Below, piece after piece: positions 25,217-55,366 of a DNA stretch of 64,000 nucleotides (within the stretch, counting starts at the first letter, position 1; each line of letters begins with the position of its first letter). Where the stretch lies: positions 15,712 to 79,711 of the IMG/VR virus record IMGVR_UViG_3300047476_001238; one strand, 5' to 3'. A program made the translations under genes and the position numbers. The DNA is from a virus. Lineage: Duplodnaviria; Heunggongvirae; Uroviricota; Caudoviricetes. The notes beneath the pieces are model-generated. The model did no database searches. It was not told the DNA's origin and saw nothing but the letters and a program-made list of their open reading frames with translations.

Positions 25217-25485
25217 ACCGGATGATGGAAAAGTGGGTCTTCTTGTTTGCTTAACTCGTATATAATTTTAACACGTTCCAGTGCATCTTGTAAAGCAGGA
25301 TTATGCTCGGCTGCTTCCAGTATTGGAATCCAAGCGTCTGATAATTCCATTCTACGTTGTTGAATATCTAGTGCGTAATCTTCGCCAATTAACACTCGCT
25401 CGGAATCGCCAACTTTGCGAGCATATATTCTAGGGCCATCACGCTCGTATATATAAGTGGCACCCGGTTCTAGTTGACTTGTCAT
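25213..25485 (-). CDS. hypothetical protein (90 aa)
   Basis: Coupled ORF. Confidence 0.4.
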   Translation of the reverse strand: MTSQLEPGATYIYERDGPRIYARKVGDSERVLIGEDYALDIQQRRMELSDAWIPILEAAEHNPALQDALERVKIIYELSKQEDPLFHHPV

Positions 25486-35461: not shown

Positions 35462-35938
35462 TTAAACATAGTCCCGCGTCGTTGGTGACCATGTATTGTA
35501 CCATTCCAAGTTCGTCGCGGTCAATGAAGAGCATACCATATTTATAGCTCTATCAATTTGGTCCGTGGGTACACCGTTTTCTTGATAACCTTCAGTGACC
35601 ATTTCCAAATAACCGGAGCCCGGCTCTTGTACATAACTTTGGTCGTTCATTTGATATACCAAAGCTTTTACAGTTTGATCGCCGGTATGCACTCGAACTT
35701 TGAAACGAGTATAGTAGTAGGGATAGCCTTCAAGGGCATCAAGTGCTCGTAAATCCCGATCAGTCAATTCCCAAAGAACTCCATAGCAGATTGAGCCCGG
35801 AGACTTTTCAACGTCAGCATGAGTTCTAAATTTAAACTCATAATCGTTGATCCAGGCAGGACCCAGGCAAACAGCCGTCGGACAACGACTTCGCATTTGC
35901 TCCAAGTTGGTATTCATTCCGTATGCAAAATATTTCAT
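35462..35938 (-). CDS. gamma-glutamyl cyclotransferase (GGCT/AIG2)-like protein
   Basis: N-terminal YFAYGMNTN matches the GGCT-family YFAYGSNM motif. Promoter TTGACA-N17-TACACT at 35948-35976. Confidence 0.65.
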   Translation of the reverse strand: MKYFAYGMNTNLEQMRSRCPTAVCLGPAWINDYEFKFRTHADVEKSPGSICYGVLWELTDRDLRALDALEGYPYYYTRFKVRVHTGDQTVKALVYQMNDQSYVQEPGSGYLEMVTEGYQENGVPTDQIDRAINMVCSSLTATNLEWYNTWSPTTRDYV

Positions 35939-35972: not shown

Positions 35973-36758
35973 TCAACCACCAAAAGTTTGTTGCAATTTT
36001 GTTAAGTCTGCACAAGTATAGGTTTGGTAGCTATACTCCAGGTGCTTGGGAAACGGAATTTGTTCAATTAAGGCACCGTATTGATTGGCTTTTTCTTGAG
36101 CGACATCTAGGAACGATCGTGTTTGGCCTGTTCCAATATTCCATACACCACTTTCTTCGATGTCACAATTTATAAATTGAAATTGTACGCCTAGCACTTG
36201 GTCCACAGGAACAAAGTCTCTTTTAAAATTTTCGCTTCCTTCAAACACTTTTATAATTCCAGTGGATTGTGCCTGAACAGCAAATTGATACTGAGGGCTA
36301 GCTTGTGTTCCTTTGTGCATTTCGTTTGCACCATACACATTAAAGTATCTAAATCCTTGGCACCGAACATGCGTCGGATTCTTTTCAACATAGTGTTCGA
36401 ATAGATATTTTGACCACGCATACGGGCTGCGAGGATCCACGGGTGCGGATTCTCTAAAATCTGTGCCAAGGCCATACACGCTCGCTGAGCTTGACCATTG
36501 AAGATTAACATCATGTTTCCTACATTCCTCGTATAACCAAATAGAGAAGTCTACATTTTGGCGCATGACTTTGGCAACATCACGTTCTGTAGTGCTACTA
36601 ATAGCACCAAAATGAAATACCCAATCCAGGCCTTCAATTCTAGGTAGAACACGCTCATCCCACTCGTATGTGTAGATTTCATGGACTCCCATCTTTTGCC
36701 AAAAACTTACAGCATGACTGCCGATGAAGCCTCTACTTCCTGTTATTAATATTTTCAA
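35973..36758 (-). CDS. hldD: ADP-L-glycero-D-manno-heptose 6-epimerase
   Basis: Colinear with E. coli HldD/RfaD: ITGSRGFIGSH, SSSASVYG, YAWSK, FRYFNVYG...KVFEGSENFKRDFV. Confidence 0.85.
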   Translation of the reverse strand: MKILITGSRGFIGSHAVSFWQKMGVHEIYTYEWDERVLPRIEGLDWVFHFGAISSTTERDVAKVMRQNVDFSIWLYEECRKHDVNLQWSSSASVYGLGTDFRESAPVDPRSPYAWSKYLFEHYVEKNPTHVRCQGFRYFNVYGANEMHKGTQASPQYQFAVQAQSTGIIKVFEGSENFKRDFVPVDQVLGVQFQFINCDIEESGVWNIGTGQTRSFLDVAQEKANQYGALIEQIPFPKHLEYSYQTYTCADLTKLQQTFGG

Positions 36759-37137
36759 TTATTTTACTCGTTGAATAATTTTGTACTAGTGGATAGTATT
36801 TAATGTCGCCACAATATTCAGATCCTGTGATCTTTTTGCCTTGGTAATCTGATCCTTTAATCATTAGATCTGGTTTGTAAAGTTTACAAATATGTTCCAG
36901 TTCCTGTTGTGTGTCAAAAATCCATACTGCATCCACACACTTTAGGTTATCCAATGCAAACTTACGATCTTCTTGATTATTAATTGGTCTTGATGGGCCT
37001 TTTAACTCGCGCACACTACGGTCGCTGTCAATACATACCAATAGATAGGTACCTTGACTACGTGCAAAGTTAAGCATTTCGATATGCCCGCGATGCAGTA
37101 TATCAAAAGTACCGTTAACGATTACTCTTCTATTCAT
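36733..37137 (-). CDS. hldC: D-beta-D-heptose 1-phosphate adenylyltransferase (HldE domain II / HldC)
   Basis: 134 aa cytidylyltransferase-fold protein with GTFDILHRGH (HxGH) and a downstream KGSDY. Confidence 0.78.
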   Translation of the reverse strand: MNRRVIVNGTFDILHRGHIEMLNFARSQGTYLLVCIDSDRSVRELKGPSRPINNQEDRKFALDNLKCVDAVWIFDTQQELEHICKLYKPDLMIKGSDYQGKKITGSEYCGDIKYYPLVQNYSTSKIIENINNRK

Positions 37138-37730
37138 TTTAAATGATCTTTAAACAATTTCAAAATCTCCACCCACGACAAACTTTTGTTGTCTTTGTGC
37201 TCAAATCTGAGACTAATTGTTAATCTCCAATCGTCGTCGTAATTTGCTACTCTGTGAGGAACATTTATTCTAATCAACGTAGGCCCTACTATTCGCTTTC
37301 GTTCAACTTCTACTAGTTTTGATTCATCAAACGGTCTATAATAATCTTCTTTGTTATACGAGCCCGGAATAAAACAATCAGTCACAGTTAACCCAGGTTC
37401 TGGTTTGTAATAAATTTGTTCGGAATCTAGACCCGACATTACCCAATTTACAGCTGGGAGTAAGTAATCTTCGCCGCCGCCATCAATGTGAATACCAGCA
37501 ACAAAATGTGGTGGGGTTTTAAAAATGTTGACTGCATGCATTTTTAAATTTTTAGTATCGATCCAATCTAAAATTTCTTGATTGACTACACTGTTTCCTT
37601 CCTCACGAACGTAAGTCCAAAATAATGGAGTCTGACGGTGTTGGAATGCTATAGCAGTATCGTCTGCAGGAATTACGAAATTTTTATTTAATGGCTCAGA
37701 AAAAAAATTTAAATCATGCATGTATTTCAT
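37134..37730 (-). CDS. hypothetical protein (198 aa) in the heptose operon
   Basis: Coupled ORF. The candidate HIDGGGED-like metal site is weak. Confidence 0.45.
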   Translation of the reverse strand: MKYMHDLNFFSEPLNKNFVIPADDTAIAFQHRQTPLFWTYVREEGNSVVNQEILDWIDTKNLKMHAVNIFKTPPHFVAGIHIDGGGEDYLLPAVNWVMSGLDSEQIYYKPEPGLTVTDCFIPGSYNKEDYYRPFDESKLVEVERKRIVGPTLIRINVPHRVANYDDDWRLTISLRFEHKDNKSLSWVEILKLFKDHLK

Positions 37731-38086
37731 TTTTGACTGTCCCCGGGCTGCACACGATAATTGTCCTCTACCGAGTCTGGTGTTGAGACTTCAATAATCA
37801 CACCTTCTTCAATACAAATCAACTGATGCGGAAACAGGGGCTGATTGCGCCACACATCGCCTACATGTAGTTCCTGTTCTTGCTGAGCTGCATTTTTTGT
37901 ATCAATGTACTTGACTATAAATTTGCCACTTAGCACATACCAGGTCTCATCTTTTTCTGCATGAAAGTGCATGCTAAATCGAGCACCTGGATTAAATTTC
38001 ATTAGCTTACCGCAATAACGATCGTTAGTGGCCCAAATTAGTTCATGTCCCCAGCCTTTTTCTACAAATCCTTCTAGTCTTGTCAT
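37727..38086 (-). CDS. cupin-domain protein (119 aa), possible sugar isomerase/epimerase
   Basis: WGHE...FNPGARFSMHFHAEKDETWYVLSG is a two-His cupin motif. Confidence 0.55.
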   Translation of the reverse strand: MTRLEGFVEKGWGHELIWATNDRYCGKLMKFNPGARFSMHFHAEKDETWYVLSGKFIVKYIDTKNAAQQEQELHVGDVWRNQPLFPHQLICIEEGVIIEVSTPDSVEDNYRVQPGDSQK

Positions 38087-38856
38087 ACCTGTTCAATTTC
38101 CTCTAATGTTGGGCTATACACACCAATGTGCTGTACAGTTATACTGGAAGCCCGAATAGCAAATTGGATTGATGATGTAATGTCTTGTGATAAAACGTAG
38201 TTGTATGCGAGAGCAGATAAAAAAGTATCACCTGCCCCGCATACATCAAACGCCTCTACTTGTGGAGCAGAAATCGTGTGTTCTTTGTACCGGGCACCAT
38301 CTTTCCCGAGTGTGACAATAAGTTCTGTAGGGAAAGTTTTAGCAGCAGCATGTTCAACTTGGTTAATTTTAACGAAGCAACCTTCGAATCTTGCAAGGTC
38401 AGTTTTCTTTGTGTCAACGAAAATAGGACCTGAATAATTCTTTCGAAGATGTTCGATGGTCTCATATTCTACGCTTCCCTTGTTGTAATCACTGACAACT
38501 ATTGCATTGTACTGGTCTATGTTGTTGTAGTCAACTTTTACGGCACGACTAGGCGAGTCTTGATCTATCCTAACCAAGTGTTGTTTTGTTCTTGAATCGA
38601 TCACCCGAGTCTTAACACATGTTTTAAGTCCATGCACAAAATCAACTGCACAACCAAGGCGTTCTAGGTTGTCTTTGACATTTGCTGCCATGCCAGGTTT
38701 GGTCACAGTGTGTGTATAATTCACTACCGGCACCGGTGCTTCTGGACTGATTCTGGTCACTGTGCCGTATTGATACTGATCAATACCGTTATCGCCAATC
38801 AACAGTATTCGCACTTTAGAAGTATTGACAGTTGGGTCTAGGGAAGTAGCATTCAT
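38083..38856 (-). CDS. hldA: D-beta-D-heptose 7-phosphate kinase (HldE domain I / HldA, PfkB family)
   Basis: VRILLIGDNGID N-terminus as in RfaE, and the ribokinase-family DVCGAGDTF motif. Confidence 0.8.
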   Translation of the reverse strand: MNATSLDPTVNTSKVRILLIGDNGIDQYQYGTVTRISPEAPVPVVNYTHTVTKPGMAANVKDNLERLGCAVDFVHGLKTCVKTRVIDSRTKQHLVRIDQDSPSRAVKVDYNNIDQYNAIVVSDYNKGSVEYETIEHLRKNYSGPIFVDTKKTDLARFEGCFVKINQVEHAAAKTFPTELIVTLGKDGARYKEHTISAPQVEAFDVCGAGDTFLSALAYNYVLSQDITSSIQFAIRASSITVQHIGVYSPTLEEIEQV

Positions 38857-39565
38857 TATTTTGTAATGGCTTAATTTTAATTGTTTCTAGCACAGAACTT
38901 TTACCCAGTCCCATAGCAATACTGTAGGCGGCACTTTGATTGCCCATGAACAAATCTGCACCAGCTATTACATCAGCAAGTTCTTTAAAGTCTTTTACAG
39001 CATAGTAGTTTACACGAAAACCAGTGCTTTTTTCAAAGTCTTCATGTTCGTCTTGTGTGCCAACAAATATGCCGTTTTGTGAGATATTGGCCTGTTCCAG
39101 TAGATTTTGCCAGGTGCCTGTGCCATTGGGACAACGATATCTAAATGTTCTATTGATTACCACAGGTGCCACACGCACAGGATCAGCTTCTAGCCATGTT
39201 TCGTTATAGATGTCAGCAGTGACTGGCATGCCAAATGTTCTATGATAGGCTTCAACATAGTTGCCTTCGAATCCGCGGAATAACACACCACGAAAACGAT
39301 CTAGATCCACATCATGGTCACCGGTCCAGACTGTGACAGAGTCAATGTATGATTGCCTTGACAACAAGGGTTTAATCAAATCAAGATCCGCATTGCGGAA
39401 TCTTCCTTGATGTGCAGGATCTACTTCATCGGGTCTATAACCGTATTGGGCTACACAATGTTCTATGTTCTCTAGGTGTACAGCAAAAGTGCCGCCACCC
39501 ATTTTTTTAACCACACTTAGACTGTAGATCAAATCGCCAAATGTTCCTGAATGTCTAAAAATCAT
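38816..39565 (-). CDS. glycosyltransferase family 9 (LPS heptosyltransferase-like) 1
   Basis: FRHSGTFGDLIYSLSVV N-terminal block and C-terminal FMGNQSAAYSIAMGLG, as in WaaC/WaaF. The start is uncertain (39565 or 39619). Confidence 0.7.
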   Translation of the reverse strand: MIFRHSGTFGDLIYSLSVVKKMGGGTFAVHLENIEHCVAQYGYRPDEVDPAHQGRFRNADLDLIKPLLSRQSYIDSVTVWTGDHDVDLDRFRGVLFRGFEGNYVEAYHRTFGMPVTADIYNETWLEADPVRVAPVVINRTFRYRCPNGTGTWQNLLEQANISQNGIFVGTQDEHEDFEKSTGFRVNYYAVKDFKELADVIAGADLFMGNQSAAYSIAMGLGKSSVLETIKIKPLQNNECYFPRPNCQYF

Positions 39566-39770
39566 ATTCTGTTTTAAAATTATAGTTTGAATACATACTA
39601 CCTGGCTGACCAGGTTCATTACTTTCTGTACATTTTAATCTATGATCGCTAGCATGCGGGCAACGTTTATTGCCACACTTGGAGCATACAATCATTCGTG
39701 ATGCGGAAACTGGGAATCCGTATTCATTACGAACTCCATCTAAACAACGATGACAATTTCCACAGTTCAT
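39555..39770 (-). CDS. small Cys-rich protein (71 aa)
   Basis: CGNCHRC...CSKCGNKRC suggests a zinc ribbon. Confidence 0.4.
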   Translation of the reverse strand: MNCGNCHRCLDGVRNEYGFPVSASRMIVCSKCGNKRCPHASDHRLKCTESNEPGQPGSMYSNYNFKTEYDF

Positions 39771-40639
39771 AAGATCTCTAATATGTTAACTGCAATGCGC
39801 TCGGCATCAAAGCTGTTGCTGCAACGAAAATCTCCGTACTTGCAAACAACCTGACTAACAGGCCGTTGTTGATGGTCGTTGCAACCCACACATTCAACTG
39901 AGGATTTAATAGCAGTGTAAGGTTTGTGTTGAGGAGCAATACGTTCAGGTAATAAATGCGTATGCAGACTCACAATGTGTGTGCCACTGGCTACTGCAAT
40001 ATGATATGGGCCGGAATCAATTCCAACAAAGCACCGGGCATGATCCATTAGCAATTTTTGTTGTTGAACACTTAGCCGATCTCTGGCGTCGACAAACAAC
40101 GGATGCTCCACCAATCCATCCTGTGCAGAACCTACACATACAATCTTGAAGTCTGTGCGTTCAGTAAACAGCCGTTCAAACACAGCATACCAAGTGTCCC
40201 AACTCATGTTCTTCAATGGCCAATACCACTGTCTGATATGAACCACAATGTAGTTGTCTAGTTCGTTGTCTTGTAAAAATCCATTTACAGTTGCTACATC
40301 AACTTCGTTGTGGAACAGCTCGGGCGTTTTTGTATCCACTGCTGATGTACCAAAAGCGCGATAGAAATAGCTGTCCAGATAATGATTGAGAGGATTCTGC
40401 TCGTAGGCATCATCCAGATTAATGTATAAATCATATTTGGCCGGGTCCGGCATTGCATTGGTATGATAAATTGCTCTCACGTGAGGATTATTATCATACA
40501 CGTTAGGAAACTCTGTGGCCACATCTATTTCACAGGTATATCTATTTTTAAGTTCGCGCACCACGCCGGTGCTCATAATCACATCGCCAAGTGCTGCACG
40601 TCTGCGTACCAGTATCTGTTGCGGGCGTTCAATATTCAA
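39767..40639 (-). CDS. glycosyltransferase family 9 (LPS heptosyltransferase-like) 2
   Basis: ILVRRRAALGDVIMSTGVVRELK and FVGIDSGPYHIAVASG GT9 signatures. Confidence 0.78.
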   Translation of the reverse strand: MNIERPQQILVRRRAALGDVIMSTGVVRELKNRYTCEIDVATEFPNVYDNNPHVRAIYHTNAMPDPAKYDLYINLDDAYEQNPLNHYLDSYFYRAFGTSAVDTKTPELFHNEVDVATVNGFLQDNELDNYIVVHIRQWYWPLKNMSWDTWYAVFERLFTERTDFKIVCVGSAQDGLVEHPLFVDARDRLSVQQQKLLMDHARCFVGIDSGPYHIAVASGTHIVSLHTHLLPERIAPQHKPYTAIKSSVECVGCNDHQQRPVSQVVCKYGDFRCSNSFDAERIAVNILEIL

Positions 40640-41840
40640 TCTCTACCTCTGGGAAATAACGCAGGAATCTATCATCCATACAATTGCGTTTGGTTTTAAT
40701 TTTTTCTCTAATCTCTTTAAAGAAATTCCACGCCAAGGGTATAAACAAAATCTTGTCATTGTCAGTGTAGTTGTCTAGCACATCAGATCCAACAACAGGA
40801 ATATCCATACCCGGGCTGTAGGTATTTTGTTTAAGTGGATTGTCGTCAATTATACAATCCAATTTGAGTTTTGTGTAATTAAGTAAGGTCATTCCTTTGG
40901 CAGCGGCGCCATACCCAACCAACTTGAATCCAAGTTCTCGATACTCTGCACAGATTTCAATAAGAAAATTTTTAATTGCAAAAACATCGTCGGCCCATTT
41001 TTCGTAGGTTGCTGGATCTTGCAGTTGAGATTCCATGGCAATTAAATTCTTGATGTGTTTGGGTCGTTTATGATTAGGACTCAACACAAATACATAACTG
41101 GTACCGTGTATGGGAGTTTTAATTACGTCTACTAGATTCCACCCAGCTTGTTTGGCCATAGCCCGCATAGACTGAATACAATAGAAACTGATATGTTCGT
41201 GATAGATAGTATCAAATTCGCCATTGAGTACCATGTCGGCTTGGCTGGTCTGAACAAAGAACAGTCCATCCTCTTTCATTAATGGTTCTAACAGTCGTAG
41301 GTATTCAACAGGATTGGGAATATGTGCAAATGCATTTTGCGAGACCACAATGTCAAACTTGCTGTGCTTTAGTTGATTAATGGACTTCTTGTCCCAAAAA
41401 CCACAAACAACTTTATGACCTTTTTTAGAACTTGTTTTGTACAAGTTTTCTGCAGGATCTACACCATGTGTAGTAAATCCAATTTGTCTAAATGCATCTA
41501 GTTGGCTACCATCATTACAGCCAATATCTAATACGTGTCCATGCCAACAATCCACATACTCTCTGCACCAACGTGCAAACCAATCCATGTATTCAAGATA
41601 TGTTTGACTGGTCCCGCTTACATAGGCATAGTTTTTGTAGATTGTTTCTGGATTAACAACATGAGTTAATTGCAAATGATTACAATCCGCACATCTATTA
41701 ACTGCCAAAGGATACTCGGTGTTCTGCCCGGGTTCCTTTAAAAAATTATTAGCCAATGGCTGATCGCCTAGATCTAGAGTGCTGACTAAATCTTTGCTGC
41801 CACAAGCAACACATTCATCAAGCTTTGCCAATTCTGTCAT
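40629..41840 (-). CDS. SAM-dependent sugar C-methyltransferase (TylC3/NovU-like, zinc-ribbon N-terminus)
   Basis: N-terminal CVACGS...CADCNH zinc ribbon, class I motif VLDIGCNDGSQL, and a C-terminal C-methyltransferase-like domain. Confidence 0.75.
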   Translation of the reverse strand: MTELAKLDECVACGSKDLVSTLDLGDQPLANNFLKEPGQNTEYPLAVNRCADCNHLQLTHVVNPETIYKNYAYVSGTSQTYLEYMDWFARWCREYVDCWHGHVLDIGCNDGSQLDAFRQIGFTTHGVDPAENLYKTSSKKGHKVVCGFWDKKSINQLKHSKFDIVVSQNAFAHIPNPVEYLRLLEPLMKEDGLFFVQTSQADMVLNGEFDTIYHEHISFYCIQSMRAMAKQAGWNLVDVIKTPIHGTSYVFVLSPNHKRPKHIKNLIAMESQLQDPATYEKWADDVFAIKNFLIEICAEYRELGFKLVGYGAAAKGMTLLNYTKLKLDCIIDDNPLKQNTYSPGMDIPVVGSDVLDNYTDNDKILFIPLAWNFFKEIREKIKTKRNCMDDRFLRYFPEVEIEY

Positions 41841-41841
41841 A

Positions 41842-42564
41842 TTAATTTTTAATTGCTACACCATTGGGTGCAATTGAACCTTCAACACCAAGTACAGGAA
41901 TTTCTGTCACTAATTCTGTTGGTAAGAACTTGTACAGTACATGTTCAATGTCTGCATAACCGCCTGCAGACACACGCTGTGCCATATAATTTAAACTGTC
42001 TGTGTACGTTTGAATTACACGTTCAGTTTGATCGGCCGGCCACGACCAAAGTCTAGCCATGTATTGTAGTTCGATACCAGTCACTTCAAACGGAAACTGA
42101 CTGCGATTCTTTGGACCAATTATGATTCGATCTGAGTGTTCCTGGTAGATGCCAAGATCAAATTCGTCGTTTAGAATATAGCGGCCTGACATTTTGTGAA
42201 TTCTATCTACGTCTGCAAAGTCGCCGTCGTCTAAACACATTCTTAATGTTTTACCAAAACACATTATTTCAGTACTGTTCTTTACAATATCCCAATTGTC
42301 AGTGCTGTTGTAGATAGCACGTACATCGGCATCTGTGCTAAAGTCTACTAAAAGATCGCAATTTTCTTCTAACAGTTGGCTCTGAGCCTCAGTTAGTGGT
42401 GTTCCGGTACACTCCATGATAATGATTTTAGAGCCTGGAGCTCGAGCTCTAATACTGTCTATTGTTGTTAATGTTTGTTGTAATCGAGCAGCCGGTGTAT
42501 ATACGCCAAATTTTGAATTGATTGCGCTGGTCACTACAAAACAGTGTTTAATTGTTTGATTCAT
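41842..42564 (-). CDS. hypothetical protein (240 aa) in the glycan operon
   Basis: Coupled ORF with no motif. Confidence 0.45.
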   Translation of the reverse strand: MNQTIKHCFVVTSAINSKFGVYTPAARLQQTLTTIDSIRARAPGSKIIIMECTGTPLTEAQSQLLEENCDLLVDFSTDADVRAIYNSTDNWDIVKNSTEIMCFGKTLRMCLDDGDFADVDRIHKMSGRYILNDEFDLGIYQEHSDRIIIGPKNRSQFPFEVTGIELQYMARLWSWPADQTERVIQTYTDSLNYMAQRVSAGGYADIEHVLYKFLPTELVTEIPVLGVEGSIAPNGVAIKN

Positions 42565-43595
42565 TTACGCAACCATCTTTCATTATGTAATGTCCACTGC
42601 ACCATTTCGTTAATACGCTCGCTCAATTTAATCTTGGGTTCCCATCCTAGACTCTTTAGTAGACCACCGTCTAGTGCATAGCGCATGTCGTGTCCTGGGC
42701 GGCTGGTATGAAAATCGGTCATTTCATACTTGAGTTCCTTGCCCACAGCAGCGGCGATCATTTGTGCTAGGGTAAGATTATCAATTTCTTCTGTACCAAC
42801 AAGGTTAAACTTCGGGCAGTGAGCGTGGCCGTAGTCTCCCGAGTGAGTATAATCCTTGAGGCCGAGTATGAACATAAGACCCTCAGCAACATCTCGGGCA
42901 TGGATATACATTCTACTACCTGCCACGGTTCTCGTCGGATCACTGTGTATGATGACTGTTTCCCCATCTCTTACCTTTTGAATAGTTGCCGGAATAAACT
43001 TTTCCGGATGCTGACGCTCACCAAATACATTCATAGTATGGGTGACCACAATAGGCATCTTGTAAGTGTTTTCATATGCAACACAAAACTCTTCCGCTGC
43101 CGCTTTAGACGCTGAATAGGGGTTGGTTGAGTTATATCTATCATACTCTTTATACGATACACCTGGCGGTGCAATCCCATATATCTCGTCAGTGGAAAAG
43201 TATACAAAGCGTTCCAGATTTGGTAAGTTTTTCCTTGCATAGTCTAACATATTGACAGTACCAACTACATTGTCCTGCACAAACTCCATCGGGTAAGCAA
43301 TTGAACGATCCACGTGACTGCCTGCCGCCAAGTGTAGGATGATATCTACCGGTCCAATATCGTGTGCAATTTGACTATTGATTTCGGCACGAAGATCGTG
43401 GAACACAATACGCAACCGCTTGCTTGTTGTTATTGGGTTGTGAGTCATCAACATATCAGCCAATCGATTTAAATTTCCTGATATGTCAAGACGATCCAAA
43501 CAGATAATGTTCCAATCTGTATCTTGTAAAATTTTATCTATAACATGATGCGCGATGAACCCAGCACCGCCGGTGACTAAAACTGTTTTTGACAT
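42561..43595 (-). CDS. NDP-sugar 4,6-dehydratase (RmlB-like SDR)
   Basis: VLVTGGAGFIAHHV Rossmann motif, STDEIYG, YSASKAAAE catalytic YxxxK, and a length of 344 aa. Confidence 0.85.
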   Translation of the reverse strand: MSKTVLVTGGAGFIAHHVIDKILQDTDWNIICLDRLDISGNLNRLADMLMTHNPITTSKRLRIVFHDLRAEINSQIAHDIGPVDIILHLAAGSHVDRSIAYPMEFVQDNVVGTVNMLDYARKNLPNLERFVYFSTDEIYGIAPPGVSYKEYDRYNSTNPYSASKAAAEEFCVAYENTYKMPIVVTHTMNVFGERQHPEKFIPATIQKVRDGETVIIHSDPTRTVAGSRMYIHARDVAEGLMFILGLKDYTHSGDYGHAHCPKFNLVGTEEIDNLTLAQMIAAAVGKELKYEMTDFHTSRPGHDMRYALDGGLLKSLGWEPKIKLSERINEMVQWTLHNERWLRK

Positions 43596-43775: not shown

Positions 43776-43831
43776 ATCATTCCTTGAGGTTATTGACATG
43801 CTATTTTAATAAATTAAACAAGAAAAGTCAA

Positions 43832-44464
43832 TTATTTTTGTACCAGTTGATCGACAAAGTTGAGCAAATAACTGTGTCTGCCACCGTGCCATTGACGACG
43901 CATCCACGAATAACTATTGTACCAATGAGGATCTGCTTCGGGATGGCAACCGATCAATCCTATTCGATCTTGAATAATGGCCATCGGAGCATGATTGGGG
44001 TAAGTTGCTATGGTTTCAAATTGCGAGCCTGTATATGTGCAACCATCATAAAAATACATACTTGTTTTGACACCTTGCCACTTGACTGGCATTTCTTTGG
44101 CGTGTGGTCTGCGTGTGCATGTTGTGGGGTGTTTGATATATTGTGTCACCCGCACGTTGTTGAGTAAACCCAAATAGTCAGTGTCGGCCCAATAGGCGCC
44201 CATGCATACGCCCAAATAATAACCGCCATCGGCCACAAAATTTCTGATACGTTGGCCATTTGCTCGCATTAGATAATCGTAAGAATCTGAATCACCAATG
44301 CCGCCTGGAACAGCCACTATATCAACATCATCAAAGAAATCGTCTTCTAGTTCGTGCCGTGTGAATATTTTAAAATTGTAATGGCGTCCCAGAGCGCGAA
44401 TTATACCGTTCCCGGACTGAACAGAACATTTGGGTTGATGTACAAAAAGAGCTATTGTTTTCAT
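43832..44464 (-). CDS. class I glutamine amidotransferase-like (DJ-1/PfpI-fold) protein
   Basis: VAVPGGIGDS...LGVCMGAY nucleophile-elbow-like motif. Confidence 0.5.
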   Translation of the reverse strand: MKTIALFVHQPKCSVQSGNGIIRALGRHYNFKIFTRHELEDDFFDDVDIVAVPGGIGDSDSYDYLMRANGQRIRNFVADGGYYLGVCMGAYWADTDYLGLLNNVRVTQYIKHPTTCTRRPHAKEMPVKWQGVKTSMYFYDGCTYTGSQFETIATYPNHAPMAIIQDRIGLIGCHPEADPHWYNSYSWMRRQWHGGRHSYLLNFVDQLVQK

Positions 44465-44703
44465 CGTGGACGATACCGCACACCAACATAGGTTCCTGCA
44501 AATGCCCCAACAGCAGCAGGAATTAACAACCAGGGATTATGCGCTGATCCAATTATGGCCGAAGCATACAAGATATAAAGAACAGTTGCCCATACAGATG
44601 CTTTCAATGCTTGCGCCCGTTGAATGGACTGTATGTAATAAGCATTGAATACGTCAGTAAAAAACATTGCAAAAAAGGCTGCTGGATATTCCCAAGTTAG
44701 CAT
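44461..44703 (-). CDS. small membrane protein (80 aa)
   Basis: Two transmembrane helices. Confidence 0.4.
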   Translation of the reverse strand: MLTWEYPAAFFAMFFTDVFNAYYIQSIQRAQALKASVWATVLYILYASAIIGSAHNPWLLIPAAVGAFAGTYVGVRYRPR

Positions 44704-44733
44704 GATTGAAATACAATTATACAGTATTTAGTG

Positions 44734-44762
44734 AATAAAAAAGACCCTTGCGGGCCTTTATA
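44734..44762 (-). terminator. rho-independent terminator (GNRA-loop hairpin plus T-run) ending the pstS-porin operon
   Basis: On the minus strand, GGCCCGCAAGGGTC followed by TTTTTT. Confidence 0.45.
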
Positions 44763-44803
44763 CCGGTTACGAGTTCCGGCTGCACTCTATTGGTGTGCTC
44801 GAT

Positions 44804-46210: not shown

Positions 46211-46219
46211 TACTGTTCC

Positions 46220-47246: not shown

Positions 47247-47321
47247 CTATAATCTCCATTTAATGTGCATTGCACAATAATATTTAAACATAGCAAGATT
47301 ACAAGCGTGTTACAAAACCAT

Positions 47322-47348
47322 AAAAAAAGGCACAAAAGTGCCTTTTTT
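47322..47348. terminator. bidirectional rho-independent terminator (GGCAC-AAAA-GTGCC)
   Basis: Perfect hairpin flanked by an A-run and a T-run, between pstS and the OMP gene. Confidence 0.6.
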
Positions 47349-47368
47349 GATTAAAATATTTAATCTAA

Positions 47369-47929: not shown

Positions 47930-47957
47930 TGTTTTCTCCTTAAAAAAAATTGTTTAA

Positions 47958-48797: not shown

Positions 48798-48808
48798 TTT
48801 TTTTCTCC

Positions 48809-50269: not shown

Positions 50270-50277
50270 TATTTATA
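50270..50277 (-). promoter_or_regulatory. T4-type late promoter motif TATAAATA, about 170 nt upstream of tctA and overlapping the GT17 stop codon
   Basis: Exact octamer on the coding strand. Confidence 0.4.
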
Positions 50278-51103
50278 CTAGATAAGATCTTGCACTAGGA
50301 AAATTTCCAACAATAATATTGCTACTACCTTGTACATGCTTGGGCAAGTATTCATCTACTGCAACAGGAGCAAAACGATAATTTACATCGGTCTGTATAA
50401 TACCTGCACCACGTGCTATACTGGCTTCTATGTCCAGCTGTTCGAGTATGTCTGGCCGATTGGTTTCTGCATGAGCAAAACTTTGTATTTTGGTTTTTGC
50501 AAAATCTTCGTTGCCAAGATAAGTGAAATGCCACCCGGCATGTTCAACAATTTCCAGCATGGAATCTCGGGCTCCGTATTCAAAATCATTTAATGCGTGT
50601 CGCATGCGTCTAAAATCTTCTGCACTGACCAATAGTTTTTTTCTTAATGCGCCGGACCAGACTGTGTAGCAATCTTGGTTGATCAGCATGTAATTGTATC
50701 GGAAATTGAACAGGGGCATACGGAATCCCCAAATACTTCTTTCACTGGTTCTTAGATAATCCACTGTTTCTGGACGCGGAATTTCGTCTGCATCACCAAT
50801 CATGATAATATCTTCTGGTGCGGCATCGGCTACCGCTTGCACAATAGCATCGCGTTGATACCGTTCTCTTGCCCAAGCATCTGTGTCCACAGGCATATCT
50901 TCTACTACATAATGTATTATTTTGTCTGCCCATTCAGCGAATCGAATCGCATTTTCTTTGTAGTACAATGGTTTTTCTTTGTTCTGGAAAGTTCTTCTGG
51001 CTTCAACCAAAACAAAATGATCCACATGATCATAAAGTTCACGGAGACGTAGTTCTAGTAGCTCGAACTCGTTAAAAAATGTAAAACAGTCGTAGATTTT
51101 CAT
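50273..51103 (-). CDS. glycosyltransferase family 17-like protein
   Basis: N-terminus MKIYDCFTFFNEFELLELRL is typical of bacterial and phage GT17 homologs. DADEIP acidic motif present. Confidence 0.65.
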   Translation of the reverse strand: MKIYDCFTFFNEFELLELRLRELYDHVDHFVLVEARRTFQNKEKPLYYKENAIRFAEWADKIIHYVVEDMPVDTDAWARERYQRDAIVQAVADAAPEDIIMIGDADEIPRPETVDYLRTSERSIWGFRMPLFNFRYNYMLINQDCYTVWSGALRKKLLVSAEDFRRMRHALNDFEYGARDSMLEIVEHAGWHFTYLGNEDFAKTKIQSFAHAETNRPDILEQLDIEASIARGAGIIQTDVNYRFAPVAVDEYLPKHVQGSSNIIVGNFPSARSYLV

Positions 51104-51154: not shown

Positions 51155-51796
51155 ATGCACGCCGTTGCTAGTCTACACGATGCCAATTATGCTGATTTGG
51201 CAAAACTAACCGATTCACCAAAACAAGAATACTGCGAACGTCACGGATACAAATTTTTTGTGCTTGATGAAATGAAGTATAGCACAATTACTGGCTTTAA
51301 CAAAATTCATTTTACTCTAGACTTATTCCAACAGCACCCAGAAATTGAATGGCTGTTGTTTAGTGAGTGCGACGCAATGATTACCAATTTAACAATTCGA
51401 ATTGAGGATCGTGTGGATGACAACTATCACTTTATTGTGCCTGTGGATCGACTGAATCTAAACTCAGGCAATTTCCTGGCTCGCAATAGCGAACAAGGTC
51501 GTGCATACTTGCAAATGATTGTAGACAGTGAAGCCGAATACAAAGATGTTGAATGGGCCGAACAACAAGTGATCATCGATACCATTGATCAATACCAAGA
51601 CATTGTCAAAATTGTTCCGCAAAAATACATGAACAGCTACGAACCGGAAATTTACGACTACTGCGACGCCAGCCGAGATATACTAGGCAACAGCGGTGCG
51701 TGGGAACCCGGAGATTGGATTGTTCATTGGCCCGGAACATACAAACCCACACGCATCAGTCGAGCAAATCATCACCTATCACAATTGACCAGATGA
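51155..51796 (+). CDS. putative GT-A glycosyltransferase (GMA12/MNN10-like)
   Basis: DXD-like ECD and a C-terminal HWPG. Confidence is low. Confidence 0.4.
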   Translation: MHAVASLHDANYADLAKLTDSPKQEYCERHGYKFFVLDEMKYSTITGFNKIHFTLDLFQQHPEIEWLLFSECDAMITNLTIRIEDRVDDNYHFIVPVDRLNLNSGNFLARNSEQGRAYLQMIVDSEAEYKDVEWAEQQVIIDTIDQYQDIVKIVPQKYMNSYEPEIYDYCDASRDILGNSGAWEPGDWIVHWPGTYKPTRISRANHHLSQLTR

Positions 51797-52635
51797 AAAT
51801 TTTTATTACTGGCGCTACAGGTTTTGTTGGGCAAAACCTAGTAGATTATTATTCTAAACGCGGTCACGAAGTCTATGCATTTCGTAGAGATGAGCAATTA
51901 CACGAATGCTTGCGTAAATTTCAGCCAGACGCTATAATTAACTCAGCAGCCGAGATATACGATCCCGAACACATGTTTGAACCGAACATTGTAATGGTTC
52001 AGACTGTGTTAGAATATGTTCGCGAATGTGATCAATACTGCCGTTTGGTTCAAATTGGTTCCAGCAGTGAATATGGGCCAACTGATCACTCAACTGCTGA
52101 AACAGATTTATTGAAGCCAGTTGATTACTATCAAGCTACCAAAGGTGCTGCAACATTGATGTGCCAAGGCTGGGCAAGATTTTTCAATTTGCCCGTTTGG
52201 ATTGTGAGACCGTACAGTGTATATGGCCCAGGTGAACGACCGCATAGATTGTTTCCTAGGTTGTATCGTGCGTTCAATTACAACGAGCCAATGACTCTGT
52301 ATCAAGGACATCATGATTTCATTTATATAAATGATTTTGTTCGTGGAATTGATTTGGTATTGCAAGAATGGGACCTGGCTCCGGGAGAAATTGTGAACTT
52401 CGGTAGCGGATCACAAACAAGTAATTTTGATCTATTGGACTTATGGATACGTATTACAGAAAATACCAATGCACCGGTGGCCAAGGTGGCCGAAATGCGA
52501 AAGGCGTTTGAAAACAACGTATGGGTCTGTGACGTTGCCAAATCTTTCAAATTGGGATTTGACTGCGAGTACACATTAGAAACAGGAATAAGAGATTTTT
52601 TATTAAAGGCAAAATATGATAGAACGATTAATTAA
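51793..52635 (+). CDS. NAD-dependent sugar epimerase/reductase (SDR, RmlD/GalE-like)
   Basis: Start at the ATG overlapping the upstream stop (ATGA). Rossmann motif ITGATGFVGQNL and YYQATK (YxxxK). Confidence 0.78.
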   Translation: MKIFITGATGFVGQNLVDYYSKRGHEVYAFRRDEQLHECLRKFQPDAIINSAAEIYDPEHMFEPNIVMVQTVLEYVRECDQYCRLVQIGSSSEYGPTDHSTAETDLLKPVDYYQATKGAATLMCQGWARFFNLPVWIVRPYSVYGPGERPHRLFPRLYRAFNYNEPMTLYQGHHDFIYINDFVRGIDLVLQEWDLAPGEIVNFGSGSQTSNFDLLDLWIRITENTNAPVAKVAEMRKAFENNVWVCDVAKSFKLGFDCEYTLETGIRDFLLKAKYDRTIN

Positions 52636-53323
52636 AACAAGTCAACAAAAGGACTTTGTTTATCAAAGCGAACATCCCGATGTCACGGCATGGTTCAATA
52701 ATCCAGAAAATTACACTGATGTAATTTTGAAACAAATAAACGAGGACGGCATGTACGATCCTATTTTTGCTGGACGCACTGATATGACTGTGCTTGATCT
52801 TGGAGCCAATTGCGGACTGTTCAGTTTATATGCAGCAGACAGTTGCAAGAAACTGATCTCTGTAGAACCAACACCAAAAACATTTGGTGTACTACAAGAA
52901 ATTGTTCGAGATCACGCAAATATTACTCCATTACAACTGGCTATTGGTCCACACAACGAAATGATTTCGTTCTATATTAACGAAAACTCAACCACCAATA
53001 GCATGCTCAATCGTAATGGCACCGAAACTCAAGTACAATGTATGACCCTAGAAACTTTGTTTCACATGCAGGGACTTGATCATGTAGACTTTATCAAATG
53101 TGACATTGAAGGTTCAGAAATGCAAGCATTAACTGATGCTACTCTTGGTCCAATTGCAGACCGGGTTAATTTTTGGTTTGTGGAAGTTCACCAAACTGAT
53201 GTTAAAGAAAATGCCTGGCCTGGCAACCTGGGTGCAAATAGGCAGCAACTTGCTGAACTGTTTCAACGTCACGGGTATCAAACTGAAATGGTCATTCACG
53301 ATCAATTGCTTGCATGGAAATGA
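52616..53323 (+). CDS. FkbM-family SAM methyltransferase
   Basis: VLDLGANCGLFSLYAA and FIKCDIEGSE FkbM signature blocks. Confidence 0.75.
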   Translation: MIERLIKTSQQKDFVYQSEHPDVTAWFNNPENYTDVILKQINEDGMYDPIFAGRTDMTVLDLGANCGLFSLYAADSCKKLISVEPTPKTFGVLQEIVRDHANITPLQLAIGPHNEMISFYINENSTTNSMLNRNGTETQVQCMTLETLFHMQGLDHVDFIKCDIEGSEMQALTDATLGPIADRVNFWFVEVHQTDVKENAWPGNLGANRQQLAELFQRHGYQTEMVIHDQLLAWK

Positions 53324-53934
53324 ACACACTAGCTCGTAGGGTAATTGATATTACCTACCAAGAACGTCTGAGTCACCTCAGCTCGACACTGAGTGCTTTG
53401 CCTATTATTGAAGAAATTTATGCTCAGAAGAAGGATGATGAAGTATTCATTCTGAGTAATGGTCATGCAGGACTTGCTCTATACGTGGTGCTTGAAAAAT
53501 ACCACGGTGTTGATCCAGTTGCTATGCTTCACAAACATGGGATCCATCCAGGTAGAGATCTAGAGAATCATTTGTACTGCTCTACAGGCAGTCTTGGTTC
53601 TGGATTACCTATCGCAGTTGGACACGCATTGGCAACTCCCAACAAGCAAGTTTACTGCATGATCAGTGACGGCGAAGCAGCCGAAGGTAGTATCTGGGAA
53701 GCATTACGTTTTATACAAGATAATAACATCACTAATCTACATGTGTACGTAAACATCAATGGTATGGGTGCATACGATGAGTTAGATACTCATCAATTGG
53801 CCTATCGGCTAGAAGCATTTTTACCTAGGATCAATTTAAGATTTAGCGATCCACCGCGATGGTCATTTGCAAAAGACCTACTAACACATTATTATGTTCT
53901 TAAAGAGCAAGACTACAAGGAGATTACTCAATGA
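53314..53934 (+). CDS. transketolase-like TPP enzyme, N-terminal (PP-domain) subunit
   Basis: GH...GSLGSGLPIAVGHALA and SDGEAAEGSIWEA (GDG-x-EG) thiamine-diphosphate-binding motifs. Only 206 aa. Confidence 0.8.
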   Translation: MEMNTLARRVIDITYQERLSHLSSTLSALPIIEEIYAQKKDDEVFILSNGHAGLALYVVLEKYHGVDPVAMLHKHGIHPGRDLENHLYCSTGSLGSGLPIAVGHALATPNKQVYCMISDGEAAEGSIWEALRFIQDNNITNLHVYVNINGMGAYDELDTHQLAYRLEAFLPRINLRFSDPPRWSFAKDLLTHYYVLKEQDYKEITQ

Positions 53935-54413
53935 GAAAAGAGTGTGCTAGTCTGTTATTAGAAAGCATGGTCAATACCGACCATATTCGTGTGATCACTG
54001 CTGATCTTGGATTTGGCATTTTGGACCAAATTCGCAATGCTTTTCCAGAACGTTTTTACAATGTTGGTGCAGCCGAACAACTGATGATTGGTGCTGCTGT
54101 AGGAATGGCACAAGAAGGTCTAGTACCTGTGTGTTATTCGATGAGTAGCTTTTTGCTCTATCGTCCTTTTGAATTCTTACGCAATTATGTCAATCACGAA
54201 CAGATACCAGTTAAACTGATTGGCTCTGGTAGAGATCGGGATTATAGCCACGATGGTATTAGCCATTGGGCACACGATGACGAACAGGTGCTTGCTGCTT
54301 TACCAAATATTAAATTATACAAACCTCAATCAATTGCTGAACTAGAGGATATTTGGCCTGTGTTTATTGGTTCCAAAGAACCTGCTTATTTAAATTTGAC
54401 AAGAAAAATATGA
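53931..54413 (+). CDS. transketolase-like TPP enzyme, pyrimidine-binding subunit (short, lacks the C-terminal domain)
   Basis: FNVGAAEQ, a Pyr-domain GxDGxTH-like SHDGISHWAHDD, and only 160 aa. Confidence 0.7.
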   Translation: MRKECASLLLESMVNTDHIRVITADLGFGILDQIRNAFPERFYNVGAAEQLMIGAAVGMAQEGLVPVCYSMSSFLLYRPFEFLRNYVNHEQIPVKLIGSGRDRDYSHDGISHWAHDDEQVLAALPNIKLYKPQSIAELEDIWPVFIGSKEPAYLNLTRKI

Positions 54414-55366
54414 CAACAAAAGTAGTTTACGTCACCGGCTGTCTGGGCTTTATTGGATATCACGTGACTAAAAAATGTCTAGCACAAGGATACTATGTTA
54501 TTGGTGTAGACAAGAAAACCTATGCAGCAAATGTACAGTTCCTTCCAGAACTGTTAGAATATAAAGATCAGTTCAAGTTCATTGATTCCGATATCAACGA
54601 TCTTGACATGCTGTACGACTGTGATTATATTATCAATACCGCAGCCGAGACACATGTTGATAACAGTATTGTGAGCAGTGATGTTTTCTTACGTAGCAAT
54701 GTAAATGGTGTACATCATTTGCTCAACTTGATCAAAGAGCGTCATCGTTTCAAAATGCCCACGCTACTGCATTTTAGTACAGACGAAGTCTACGGCGACA
54801 TCGAAGAAGGCGCACATGTTGAAACAGATCTACTAAAACCTAGTAATCCTTATTCGGCCACAAAAGCAGCAGCGGATCAATTGATTATTGCATGGGCACG
54901 TACATTCCGGGTGCCTTATGTTATTGTTAGACCTACAAACAATTACGGCATTGGTCAATACACAGAAAAGTTTATTCCTAAAACTATTAAGAGTTTGCAG
55001 TTAGGAAGAAAAATTCCGCTGCATGATGCCGGTATGCCACGCCGTACTTGGCTTCATGTGAGTGATACTGCATCGGCTGTTATAAAAATCATTGAGTCTG
55101 GTGTTCAAAACGAAATTTTCAACATAAGCGGAAATCACGAAGAACAAAATATTGTGATTGCCATGCAAATTATTGATATGTTTTGTCCCAACGAAGTAGA
55201 CGATTACGATTTGTATTTGGACTTGTCTATTAAACGACCCGGACAAGATGTTCGATACAGTATTGACGATCAAAAATTAAAGGCTCTTGGATGGAAACCA
55301 AAAGCTATTTTTGAAGTAGAACTGGCTAAGATTGTTCAGTACTATTCCCAGACGTTTGTGTGGTAG
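54410..55366 (+). CDS. NDP-sugar 4,6-dehydratase/epimerase (SDR)
   Basis: ATGA-coupled start. VYVTGCLGFIGYHV, STDEVYG, YSATKAAAD. Confidence 0.82.
   Translation: MTTKVVYVTGCLGFIGYHVTKKCLAQGYYVIGVDKKTYAANVQFLPELLEYKDQFKFIDSDINDLDMLYDCDYIINTAAETHVDNSIVSSDVFLRSNVNGVHHLLNLIKERHRFKMPTLLHFSTDEVYGDIEEGAHVETDLLKPSNPYSATKAAADQLIIAWARTFRVPYVIVRPTNNYGIGQYTEKFIPKTIKSLQLGRKIPLHDAGMPRRTWLHVSDTASAVIKIIESGVQNEIFNISGNHEEQNIVIAMQIIDMFCPNEVDDYDLYLDLSIKRPGQDVRYSIDDQKLKALGWKPKAIFEVELAKIVQYYSQTFVW

Follow-up and report, generated by a model that had tools for sequence, protein, structure and literature searches.

A predicted ADP-heptose supply and sugar-transfer operon within the glycan island of an uncultured jumbo phage

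Results

Organization of the operon

The 64,000-nucleotide stretch analysed here, hereafter the window, comprises positions 15,712 to 79,711 of the IMG/VR virus record IMGVR_UViG_3300047476_001238 (Caudoviricetes) and carries a minus-strand operon encoding homologues of the heptose enzymes HldA, HldC and HldD, a cupin, a sugar dehydratase, a C-methyltransferase and glycosyltransferases (Table 1). Eleven contiguous minus-strand open reading frames (ORFs) were found in 35973-43595, just as a first-pass annotation of this DNA had placed them, and since adjacent ORFs overlap by 4-41 nt or are separated by a 1-nt gap, an operon structure fits; no convincing internal terminator was detected in this run. 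The window was compared with related loci, which are denoted by L-numbers (L001 is Sf-CH8 and L002 is P-SSM2). The alignment of relatives revealed a further, strongly conserved leader ORF of 49 amino acids (MFESIEIRKVANGF...), which had not been listed before, is called on identical and related metagenome contigs and forms the first gene of the operon. Transcription had been attributed to sigma70-like promoters, and one such site held up: the hexamers of an intergenic site upstream of the operon (TTGACT-17-TAAAAT), located by a consensus scan and reading of the sequence, keep their position in L009, L010, L013 and L022 despite diverged flanks, and because both they and the 49-amino-acid ORF are conserved where the flanks have diverged, we accept this promoter as real. 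The overall number of promoter-like sites across the region was at chance level (42 found vs 33 ± 6 expected), and the T4 late-promoter motif TATAAATA showed no enrichment. An element conserved between the leader ORF and the RmlB-type gene, TATTCAAYAA, was considered as a repeated regulatory motif and rejected, its count in the window being near expectation (28 matches vs 22 ± 5). Against three relatives, the dN/dS values of the operon ranged from 0.02 to 0.14 at saturated dS (0.02 for the RmlB-type gene), indicating strong purifying selection, and its genes were intact in hundreds of metagenomic homologues, with identities of at least 74% among the matches listed.

Table 1. Positions of the operon genes and of neighbouring features in the window (aa, amino acids)
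Feature	Position	Strand	Family match or basis
HldD-like ADP-glycero-manno-heptose 6-epimerase (short-chain dehydrogenase/reductase, SDR), shortened, 261 aa	35973..36758	-	TIGR02197
HldC-like heptose-1-phosphate adenylyltransferase, 134 aa	36733..37137	-	CTP_transf_like; TIGR02199 best family
Accessory 198-aa protein, HxD...H...RxxSxRF motif	37134..37730	-	no family match
Metal-binding cupin, 119 aa	37727..38086	-	Cupin_2; PF01050; phrog_7851
HldA-like heptose-7-phosphate kinase	38083..38856	-	PfkB; TIGR02198 best family
GT9-like (GT-B) protein, distant, 249 aa	38816..39565	-	motifs HSGDxGDIIYSLP, FIGNQSxPxAIAEGLK
Cys-rich 71-aa protein, zinc-ribbon-like, accessory	39555..39770	-	no family match
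GT9 glycosyltransferase GT9_290, 290 aa, closest to WaaQ/HepIII type	39767..40639	-	PF01075, TIGR02201
S-adenosylmethionine-dependent NDP-4-keto-sugar 3-C-methyltransferase, N-terminal Zn-ribbon, 403 aa	40629..41840	-	Methyltransf_13 + Methyltransf_23 + Methyltransf_14
GT-A-fold glycosyltransferase, GT8-like, 240 aa	41842..42564	-	
RmlB-type nucleoside diphosphate (NDP)-sugar 4,6-dehydratase, 344 aa	42561..43595	-	PF01370, PF16363, TIGR01181
Leader ORF, 49 aa	43626..43775	-	called on identical and related contigs
Sigma70-like promoter	43803..43831	-	consensus scan and reading
Phosphate-selective porin O/P	44804-46210	-	
PstS	46220-47335	-	
Small outer-membrane-protein beta-barrel	47369-47929	-	
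TctA	48809-50101	-	
GT17-family glycosyltransferase	50273..51103	-	PF04724 103 bits
Divergent second sugar operon	51155..55366	+	Pfam
Fusion of HldC-like nucleotidyltransferase and phosphomannose isomerase (PMI)-type cupin, 262 aa	59244..60032	-	PF01467 50 bits + PF01050 80 bits

Enzymes predicted to supply ADP-heptose

The assignments of HldA, HldC and HldD held at the family level, the heptose models scoring far best for each protein and below their equivalog cut-offs. The kinase matched TIGR02198 (rfaE_dom_I) at 145.7 bits, compared with 58 bits for ribokinase (cut-off 345), and its RISPEAPVPV and GAGD motifs align with Escherichia coli HldE, relative to which it has three internal deletions that are common to the P-SSM2 kinase. 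For the adenylyltransferase, TIGR02199 (rfaE_dom_II) gave 132.5 bits and TagD 63 bits (cut-off 181.5), with HxGH and ISST-type motifs and a full-length alignment to domain II of E. coli HldE. The epimerase scored 207.8 bits with TIGR02197 (heptose_epim) against 68 bits for GalE (cut-off 274.6) and matched E. coli HldD at E 1.7e-46; it retains S116, Y140, K144, K178 and the substrate-binding FEGSENFKRDF motif, and lacks about 20 residues of the NADP-binding region as well as the last 20-25 residues. In view of their shortness and sub-cut-off scores, we refer to the three proteins as HldA-, HldC- and HldD-like. Collectively, a phage-encoded route to ADP-heptose, together with at least one enzyme able to use ADP-heptose, is well supported as a prediction from these homologies.

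A cupin as candidate for the missing isomerase

The bacterial isomerase GmhA and phosphatase GmhB had not been evident in the first-pass annotation, and neither was found here by homology or motif searches. E. coli GmhA yielded no homologue among 85 window ORFs (phmmer --max, best E 0.085) and no tblastn match in the window or 100 loci, E. coli GmhB and cyanophage mini haloacid dehalogenase (HAD) queries had no match in the window, and no DxD(G/N/S/E)(T/V) HAD motif occurs there in any frame. The 198-amino-acid ORF, earlier proposed as a candidate for a missing step, was rejected as a GmhB-type phosphatase: it is an accessory, lineage-variable gene with an HxD...H...R motif in place of a HAD motif, a motif for which a dioxygenase-like protein is a candidate reading. 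It is confined to the window, identical contigs and L016, with a family member in another operon slot of L021.

The cupin, the other earlier candidate, fared differently. It matched PF01050 (MannoseP_isomer) at 25.0 bits (cut-off 23.6) and phrog_7851 at E 6e-39, is an orthologue of P-SSM2 gp312, and carries the motif HxH...E...W.V..G plus a distal His, read as MHFHAEKDETWYVLSG...PHQL, which is the metal-binding motif of type-II PMI. We scanned IMG/VR with the compact HldA-like kinase, which was found on at least 585 contigs, and counted partner genes in the best 80 of these. The cupin accompanied the kinase in 74 of the 80 loci and was the most conserved partner (median identity 72%), with HldC in 76 and HldD in 68; GmhA was present in none, a mini-HAD phosphatase in 7 and a GmhB-like phosphatase in 9, so that a phosphatase of either type occurs in at most 16 of the 80. 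Gene order is shuffled among these loci while the strand is kept, and HldA, cupin, HldC and HldD thus constitute a compact mobile four-gene viral module. Because of this association with the kinase (74/80) and the absence of GmhA (0/80), the cupin stands out as a strong candidate for a sedoheptulose-7-phosphate isomerase that acts in place of GmhA without being its orthologue; the papers searched contained no description of such a cupin isomerase. A fusion ORF elsewhere in the window joins the two kinds of domain, its nucleotidyltransferase part being 42% identical to the 134-amino-acid HldC-like protein over 73 residues and its cupin domain aligning with the 119-amino-acid cupin, and may represent a Rosetta-stone link between nucleotidyltransferase and cupin activities.

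Two side observations concern this fusion ORF. A methyltransferase gene (60029-60790) adjoins it, and the fusion may serve a second nucleotide-sugar route; tblastn matches to the fusion protein occurred in 52 of the 80 viral heptose loci, many of them probably the loci's own HldC genes.

The survey also bears on cyanophage annotations. P-SSM2 gp311 (L002 12746-13090), annotated as 'phosphoheptose isomerase', is a 114-residue HAD-like phosphatase with the motifs DIDGT...TAR...GKP...DD; its matches in the PDB are 9IQW ('capsule biosynthesis protein'; E 1e-10) and 1XPJ, and Sf-CH8 has a counterpart (L001 11609-11959). This mini-HAD protein probably performs the GmhB-equivalent step. The cyanophage cupin orthologue, annotated as 'cysteine dioxygenase' or 'nucleotidyltransferase', adjoins the mini-HAD gene and is the actual candidate for the isomerase in these phages.

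Dehydratase, C-methyltransferase and glycosyltransferases

The call of an RmlB-like 4,6-dehydratase was upheld by a full-length match to solved dTDP-glucose 4,6-dehydratases (E 6e-46), by the catalytic motifs TDE (STDEIYG) and YxxxK (YSASK), and by 63% identity to a gene of cyanophage S-SRM01; since its TIGR01181 score of 238 bits lies below the equivalog cut-off of 365, the predicted dehydratase is not tied to dTDP-glucose. The zinc-ribbon sugar C-methyltransferase was likewise borne out by its three-domain architecture and by end-to-end homology to solved enzymes of the TylC3/TcaB9 type, namely 4RV9 (D-mycarose 3-C-methyltransferase; E 5e-59 over residues 8-380), TcaB9 and KijD1. This gene is 60-64% identical among relatives (L009, L010, L016) whose flanking genes are 75-95% identical, so the locus looks mosaic at this point, one tailoring step having either undergone allelic replacement or diverged fast.

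Two GT9 heptosyltransferase homologues had been proposed, and the assignment stands for GT9_290 with its catalytic motifs intact; the 249-residue protein is remote and has a changed donor-site motif. GT9_290 matched PF01075 at 38.4 bits (cut-off 22), the match covering the C-terminal residues 182-258 only, TIGR02201 at 46 bits, with all NCBIfam equivalog models below cut-off, and E. coli WaaQ at E 1.4e-7. Its D19, K143 and D208-S-G..H213 align with D13, K192 and D261..H266 of WaaC, and with WaaF and WaaQ, and D19, K143, D208-S-G and H213 are invariant in 23 homologues. In WaaC we take D13 to be the catalytic Asp of the G-D motif, K192 to belong to KxW, and D261...H266 to form the donor-binding D-(S/T)-G-x-x-H motif. 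A cluster of four cysteines in the C-lobe of GT9_290 (C250, C253, C266, C273; CxxC-12-C-6-C) is also invariant in homologues, and E. coli WaaC, WaaF and WaaQ lack it. The co-operonic ADP-heptose genes give circumstantial support to GT9_290 as a putative user of ADP-heptose.

We assign the GT9-like protein 249 residues (38816-39565) in preference to 267 (38816-39619), because its homologues all start at the second Met. It had no Pfam, NCBIfam, PHROG or PDB sequence match, and belongs to a large uncharacterised family (2211 cluster representatives at E<1e-3), of which 7 of 77 members match PF01075, in some cases by way of a canonical GT9 domain fused to the protein. Of the GT9 motifs, G-D is retained (G10 and D11 invariant in 77 sequences), D-(S/T)-G is changed to N-Q-S, the His to Ser or Ala, and the KxW Lys is absent; with these replacements the donor cannot be inferred. 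Single-sequence and family-profile queries of the PDB for these two proteins, GT9_290 and the GT9-like one, gave a marginal WaaF match alone (E 0.05), and weak, mutually consistent evidence suggests that the GT9-like protein may be related to GT9. The 240-residue protein previously left as unknown has a GT-A glycosyltransferase fold, which matches giant-virus glycosyltransferases including PBCV-1 A64R. Among 50,697 phage records, tblastn returned no match for GT9_290 or the GT9-like protein, and few for the C-methyltransferase and the GT-A protein.

Cyanophages may also carry an unrecognised GT9-like transferase: the hypothetical P-SSM2 protein gp307 (L002 8717-9829), two genes upstream of the heptose cassette, weakly matches E. 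coli WaaQ (E 0.0015) and, at the donor-site motif, a home-made GT9 hidden Markov model (E 7e-4), while Pfam is blind to it.

The Cys-rich 71-residue protein is carried by only some relatives (dN/dS 0.06-0.25). Nine core genes of the operon are fixed, whereas small or uncharacterised genes specific to a lineage come and go at four or more insertion slots (L010 7741-9163; L021 11591-12247; L022 9675-10004; window 37134-37730 and 39555-39770), containing proteins of 109-119 and 356 amino acids, the Cys-rich protein and the HxD...H family of 198-218 amino acids. Directly after the epimerase gene, in the window and most relatives, lies a gamma-glutamyl cyclotransferase-like (GGACT/AIG2) gene (35462-35938, minus strand) with its own sigma70-like site (35976-35948) and no obvious role in sugar chemistry.

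The surrounding glycan island and its carrier

Read at first as a stand-alone unit, the heptose operon is half of a glycan island of about 17-20 kb with five glycosyltransferases. In relatives, the GT17 gene lies directly upstream of the leader ORF and RmlB gene (L016, L010, L021, L022), the divergent sugar operon directly adjoins the heptose operon (L016, L014, L021), and both stand beside the leader ORF and RmlB gene in L016, L014 and a 368-kb contig. The divergent operon encodes a GT34 glycosyltransferase, an SDR epimerase/reductase, an FkbM methyltransferase, a split transketolase-like thiamine-diphosphate enzyme and a GDP-mannose-dehydratase-like SDR protein. In the window and a 352-kb contig, a BPL_N-like gene, the phosphate porin and PstS are inserted between the island halves, to which the window adds the outer-membrane beta-barrel and TctA. 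Since this envelope block is absent from, or differently composed in, L016 and L021, it is a recent, variable insertion that splits the island in this lineage. Transmembrane segments were found in none of the island enzymes, and no Wzx/Wzy/WecA-type genes were seen in the scanned parts of the window.

The carrier is an uncultured jumbo phage of about 350 kb. Homologous contigs, Ga0334987_0000002 and Ga0620987_00193 among them, measure 346-368 kb, and the closest cultured phages are jumbo-phage relatives (Atu_ph07, PA5oct, Phosso and the GAP32 group; 45-61% identity), so the label "T4-like", which had been applied on first reading, is too narrow: UvsX-, gp41- and primase-like genes are present, but membership in the sense of Straboviridae/Kyanoviridae failed when tested on core replication genes, to which jumbo phages are nearer. 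Phage replication genes in the window include ribonucleotide reductase (RNR), a DnaB-like helicase, primase, UvsX, a gp41-like protein and further helicases. The same gene run was seen, identical, on independent metagenome contigs, and versions 60-95% identical on twelve IMG/VR contigs; a near-identity DNA search with the operon against the 50,697 phage records gave no match.

Several observations were made elsewhere in the window. The minus-strand block at 44461-50101 holds envelope and nutrient-uptake genes, an 80-amino-acid membrane protein and a 295-amino-acid protein without assignment among its members. The window has a notable load of radical-SAM proteins, one with a B12-binding domain, one with a SPASM domain and three others, alongside IscA/HesB-like and IscU/NifU-like Fe-S assembly proteins read by eye (9006-9332, 9332-11056, 11049-11429, 17869-19032, 20498-21451, 56629-57477 and 61470-62747 for the whole set), which suggests extensive radical chemistry for which the phage brings its own Fe-S cluster machinery. 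At 25482-28072 (minus strand), a 2-oxoglutarate-Fe(II) oxygenase (prolyl 4-hydroxylase-like), a PIG-L/LmbE-type de-N-acetylase and a PrmA-like methyltransferase stand in a row as candidate sugar or protein modifiers. A 453-amino-acid protein with tailspike- or pre-neck-appendage-like PHROG matches (6921-8282, minus strand) has its gene flanked by those for RNR and a PD-(D/E)XK nuclease, and no structural module is visible anywhere near it.

Discussion

Relation to known systems

Heptose pathways encoded by lytic myoviruses are not new, and the description of this one as notable for a lytic T4-like phage was overstated. Sullivan et al. reported 24 'LPS genes' (LPS, lipopolysaccharide) in P-SSM2 in 2005 (PMC1079782); the clusters T4-GCs 304, 305, 307 and 308, described in 2010 as co-occurring in three cyanophages with no function assigned (PMC3037559), are the HldC-like, HldA-like, cupin and epimerase genes of the window cassette; and rfaE genes in pelagimyophages and a heptosyltransferase in a huge phage are also on record (PMC7029224, PMC10747093). 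The cyanophage cassette (P-SSM2, S-SM2, S-SSM7; also S-CAM1, S-T4 and Sf-CH8) encodes the same four proteins as the window, with identities of 41-48% for the HldC-like protein, 41-45% for the compact HldA-like kinase with the same deletions, 37% for the cupin and 38% for the short HldD-like protein. Both reside in large aquatic myoviruses with variable glycosyltransferases and phosphate genes adjoining. They differ in that the cyanophage cassettes add the mini-HAD phosphatase, which the window and its relatives lack, whereas in the window lineage the operon itself further encodes the GT9, GT9-like and GT-A proteins, a dehydratase of RmlB type and a 3-C-methyltransferase, and the carrier, a jumbo phage, falls outside Kyanoviridae.

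The bacterial ADP-L-glycero-beta-D-manno-heptose pathway shares the kinase, adenylyltransferase, epimerase and one GT9 with the window, with conserved catalytic motifs. Unlike that pathway, which uses GmhA and GmhB, the window has the PMI-like cupin in place of a SIS-type GmhA and no HAD-type GmhB; its enzymes are 15-20% shorter and score under the equivalog cut-offs, and its operon also carries the dehydratase, the C-methyltransferase and non-GT9 transferases. The pairing of a dehydratase with a Zn-ribbon C-methyltransferase recalls the branched-sugar pathways of TylC3, TcaB9 and KijD1; here, unlike there, it occurs in a phage operon with heptose genes and with no 2,3-dehydratase, aminotransferase or 4-ketoreductase nearby. 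Giant viruses (chlorovirus A64R, mimivirus) likewise combine several soluble viral transferases with unusual-sugar pathways, and their A64R provides the structural match of the GT-A protein; their glycans have been demonstrated on the capsids or fibrils of eukaryotic viruses, whereas the window is known from its genes, with a donor set that includes ADP-heptose.

New in this locus is that a single operon, belonging to a jumbo-phage lineage that is abundant and uncultured, combines the cassette with the GT9, GT9-like and GT-A proteins, the RmlB-type dehydratase and the 3-C-methyltransferase. Also new are the quantitative co-occurrence evidence that a cupin may replace GmhA, and the re-annotation of the cyanophage 'phosphoheptose isomerase' as a predicted small HAD phosphatase.

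Proposed pathway and its acceptor

Our favoured overall explanation, which we advance tentatively, is that the island makes heptose and tailored sugars and would transfer them to the host lipid A-core. Sedoheptulose-7-phosphate would be converted to D-glycero-D-manno-heptose-7-phosphate by the cupin or by host GmhA, and the HldA-like kinase would then form the beta-1,7-bisphosphate. As no phage enzyme was found for the removal of the 7-phosphate, a host phosphatase would presumably serve; the HldC-like enzyme would yield ADP-D,D-heptose and the HldD-like epimerase ADP-L,D-heptose. In parallel, the RmlB-type dehydratase and the 3-C-methyltransferase would produce a 6-deoxy-4-keto-3-C-methyl NDP-sugar. 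The soluble GT-A, GT9 and GT9-like proteins of the operon and the neighbouring GT17 and GT34 may add sugars sequentially to a cytoplasm-facing acceptor without polyprenol-linked machinery, that acceptor being a host lipid A-core glycolipid built in the style of lipooligosaccharide (LOS) and then exported. Remodelling of the surface during a long infection would block superinfection or re-adsorption of progeny.

To our knowledge, all characterised GT9 enzymes except those of the bacterial autotransporter heptosyltransferase (BAHT) family act on LPS or LOS cores. We prefer the lipid A-core as acceptor, as a possibility still short of probable, because GT9_290 is nearest to WaaQ, polyprenol machinery is missing, envelope genes adjoin and transferase sets vary by lineage. 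The lack of transmembrane segments and of any visible Wzx/Wzy/WecA-type gene fits direct LOS-like assembly, and glycosyltransferase sets that differ between phage lineages with the same heptose cassette are expected, since such an acceptor would be host-specific. Several results weigh on the other side: the NCBIfam matches of the heptose and RmlB-type enzymes, each the best-scoring family, all fall under the equivalog cut-offs; neither the window nor ±10 kb of flanking sequence in the 346-368 kb relatives yielded a GmhB-type phosphatase; the operon shows no evident 4-ketoreductase that could serve the RmlB/C-methyltransferase branch; and a host search with the phage porin and TctA across 185,579 reference genomes returned no match.

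Other objections to a lipid A-core acceptor count at the same time for phage virion proteins (capsid, fibres or decoration), which the same chemistry could modify if GT9_290 acted like TibC or AAH. Cyanobacterial LPS lacks heptose and Kdo according to a review (PMC4390846), and since the cassette thrives in cyanophages, it would not simply feed a canonical inner core there; the cyanophage cassette and a GT-A homologue moreover adjoin tail-fibre genes. The GT17 and GT34 proteins, the giant-virus relatives of the GT-A protein including PBCV-1 A64R, and the nearby 2-oxoglutarate oxygenase and protein-methyltransferase-like genes hint at protein glycosylation or modification, and all transferases are soluble, as are the cytoplasmic ones of chloroviruses, mimiviruses and mycobacteriophages. 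BAHT enzymes (TibC, AAH) belong to GT9 like GT9_290, use ADP-heptose and O-heptosylate proteins, and the invariant cysteines of GT9_290, which WaaC, WaaF and WaaQ lack, are reminiscent of the TibC iron finger implicated in protein-substrate binding (C339/342/358/370; PMC4358343), similarly C-terminal in position and different in spacing; this likeness rests on position and count and not on a residue-by-residue alignment. GT9_290, however, has no evident beta-hairpin thumb and, as it starts directly at the GT9 N-lobe motif, no room for the N-terminal beta-barrel of TibC, and its weak match to the Aah/TibC model TIGR04414 (20.5 bits, cut-off 200) compares with 46 bits for the WaaQ type. The operon, preceded by a sigma70-like promoter, is also surrounded by replication and early-type genes and not by a structural module, and transferase sets vary by lineage while structural proteins of related phages stay conserved, so that we consider virion proteins a somewhat unlikely acceptor. 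Transfer of heptose, with or without other sugars, to DNA bases such as 5-hydroxymethylcytosine (5hmC) as an anti-restriction hypermodification appears very improbable. Reconstituted phage clusters do place mono- and di-heptose on 5hmC by means of a kinase/phosphatase, a cytidylyltransferase-like enzyme and a GT-B transferase (bioRxiv 10.1101/2023.12.21.572611); the contig 53 cluster of that study likewise provides a phage route to nucleotide-activated heptose, GT9 enzymes share the GT-B fold with T4 beta-glucosyltransferase (beta-GT), and the operon shares its strand with the RNR, helicase and primase genes of the surrounding replication and nucleotide-metabolism region. The known DNA heptosyltransferase, however, is beta-GT-like and not GT9; contig 53 has a bifunctional HAD/APH-like enzyme, a T4-beta-GT-like transferase and a C5-methyltransferase/5mYOX link, and the ORFs scanned in the 64-kb window included neither a dCMP hydroxymethylase nor a C5-methyltransferase/5mYOX (TET-JBP) or T4-beta-GT-like gene, a weak negative for a genome of about 350 kb. 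Five transferases with branched and methylated sugars would also make an unusually complex DNA modification. The notion that the operon is stuffer DNA without function, or a set of decaying genes of host origin, raised as a possibility for cyanophage LPS clusters (PMC3037559) and in keeping with enzymes shorter than bacterial orthologues, is effectively refuted by the low dN/dS values, which indicate working genes, by intact ORFs and conserved catalytic residues, and by deletions common to distant phage lineages, which therefore point to a streamlined functional form.

A separate question is whether the two sugar branches belong together, and here we lean slightly towards two unrelated neighbouring routes, each with its own transferase, in which the RmlB-like enzyme would use host dTDP-glucose and the C-methyltransferase would make a 6-deoxy-3-C-methyl-hexose. 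The RmlB-like protein has dTDP-glucose 4,6-dehydratases as its closest matches, and every solved relative of the C-methyltransferase acts on a dTDP-sugar. In S-SRM01 and LR745206, RmlB, GT-A and C-methyltransferase genes are found with no heptose genes, and in at least 70 of 72 distant loci the heptose cassette lacks these three. On the other hand, no RmlA-type thymidylyltransferase was seen in the window, HldC-like proteins were the only nucleotidyltransferases found, and the genes are always co-operonic and translationally coupled in this phage lineage, which keeps in play the alternative that the dehydratase and methyltransferase tailor ADP-heptose. A bolder combination strikes us as unlikely: the cupin would be a new isomerase class, the dehydratase and 3-C-methyltransferase would convert ADP-heptose to a 6-deoxy C-methyl-branched heptose, the GNQS-motif GT9-like protein would transfer it while the canonical GT9 transferred plain heptose, and the glycan would reside on the phage particle or DNA and not on host LPS.

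For twenty years phage 'LPS genes' have appeared in gene lists with no function known for them, and the present locus supplies a testable candidate for a sedoheptulose-7-phosphate isomerase. With the module paired to a recognisable ADP-heptose-type transferase, a joint assay of donor and transferase becomes feasible. Should the acceptor be the virion or DNA, aquatic jumbo phages, which are abundant, would join the viruses that encode glycosylation, here with bacterial-type heptoses; should it be host LPS, as we tentatively favour, this would be direct evidence of lytic phages rebuilding the host surface in mid-infection.

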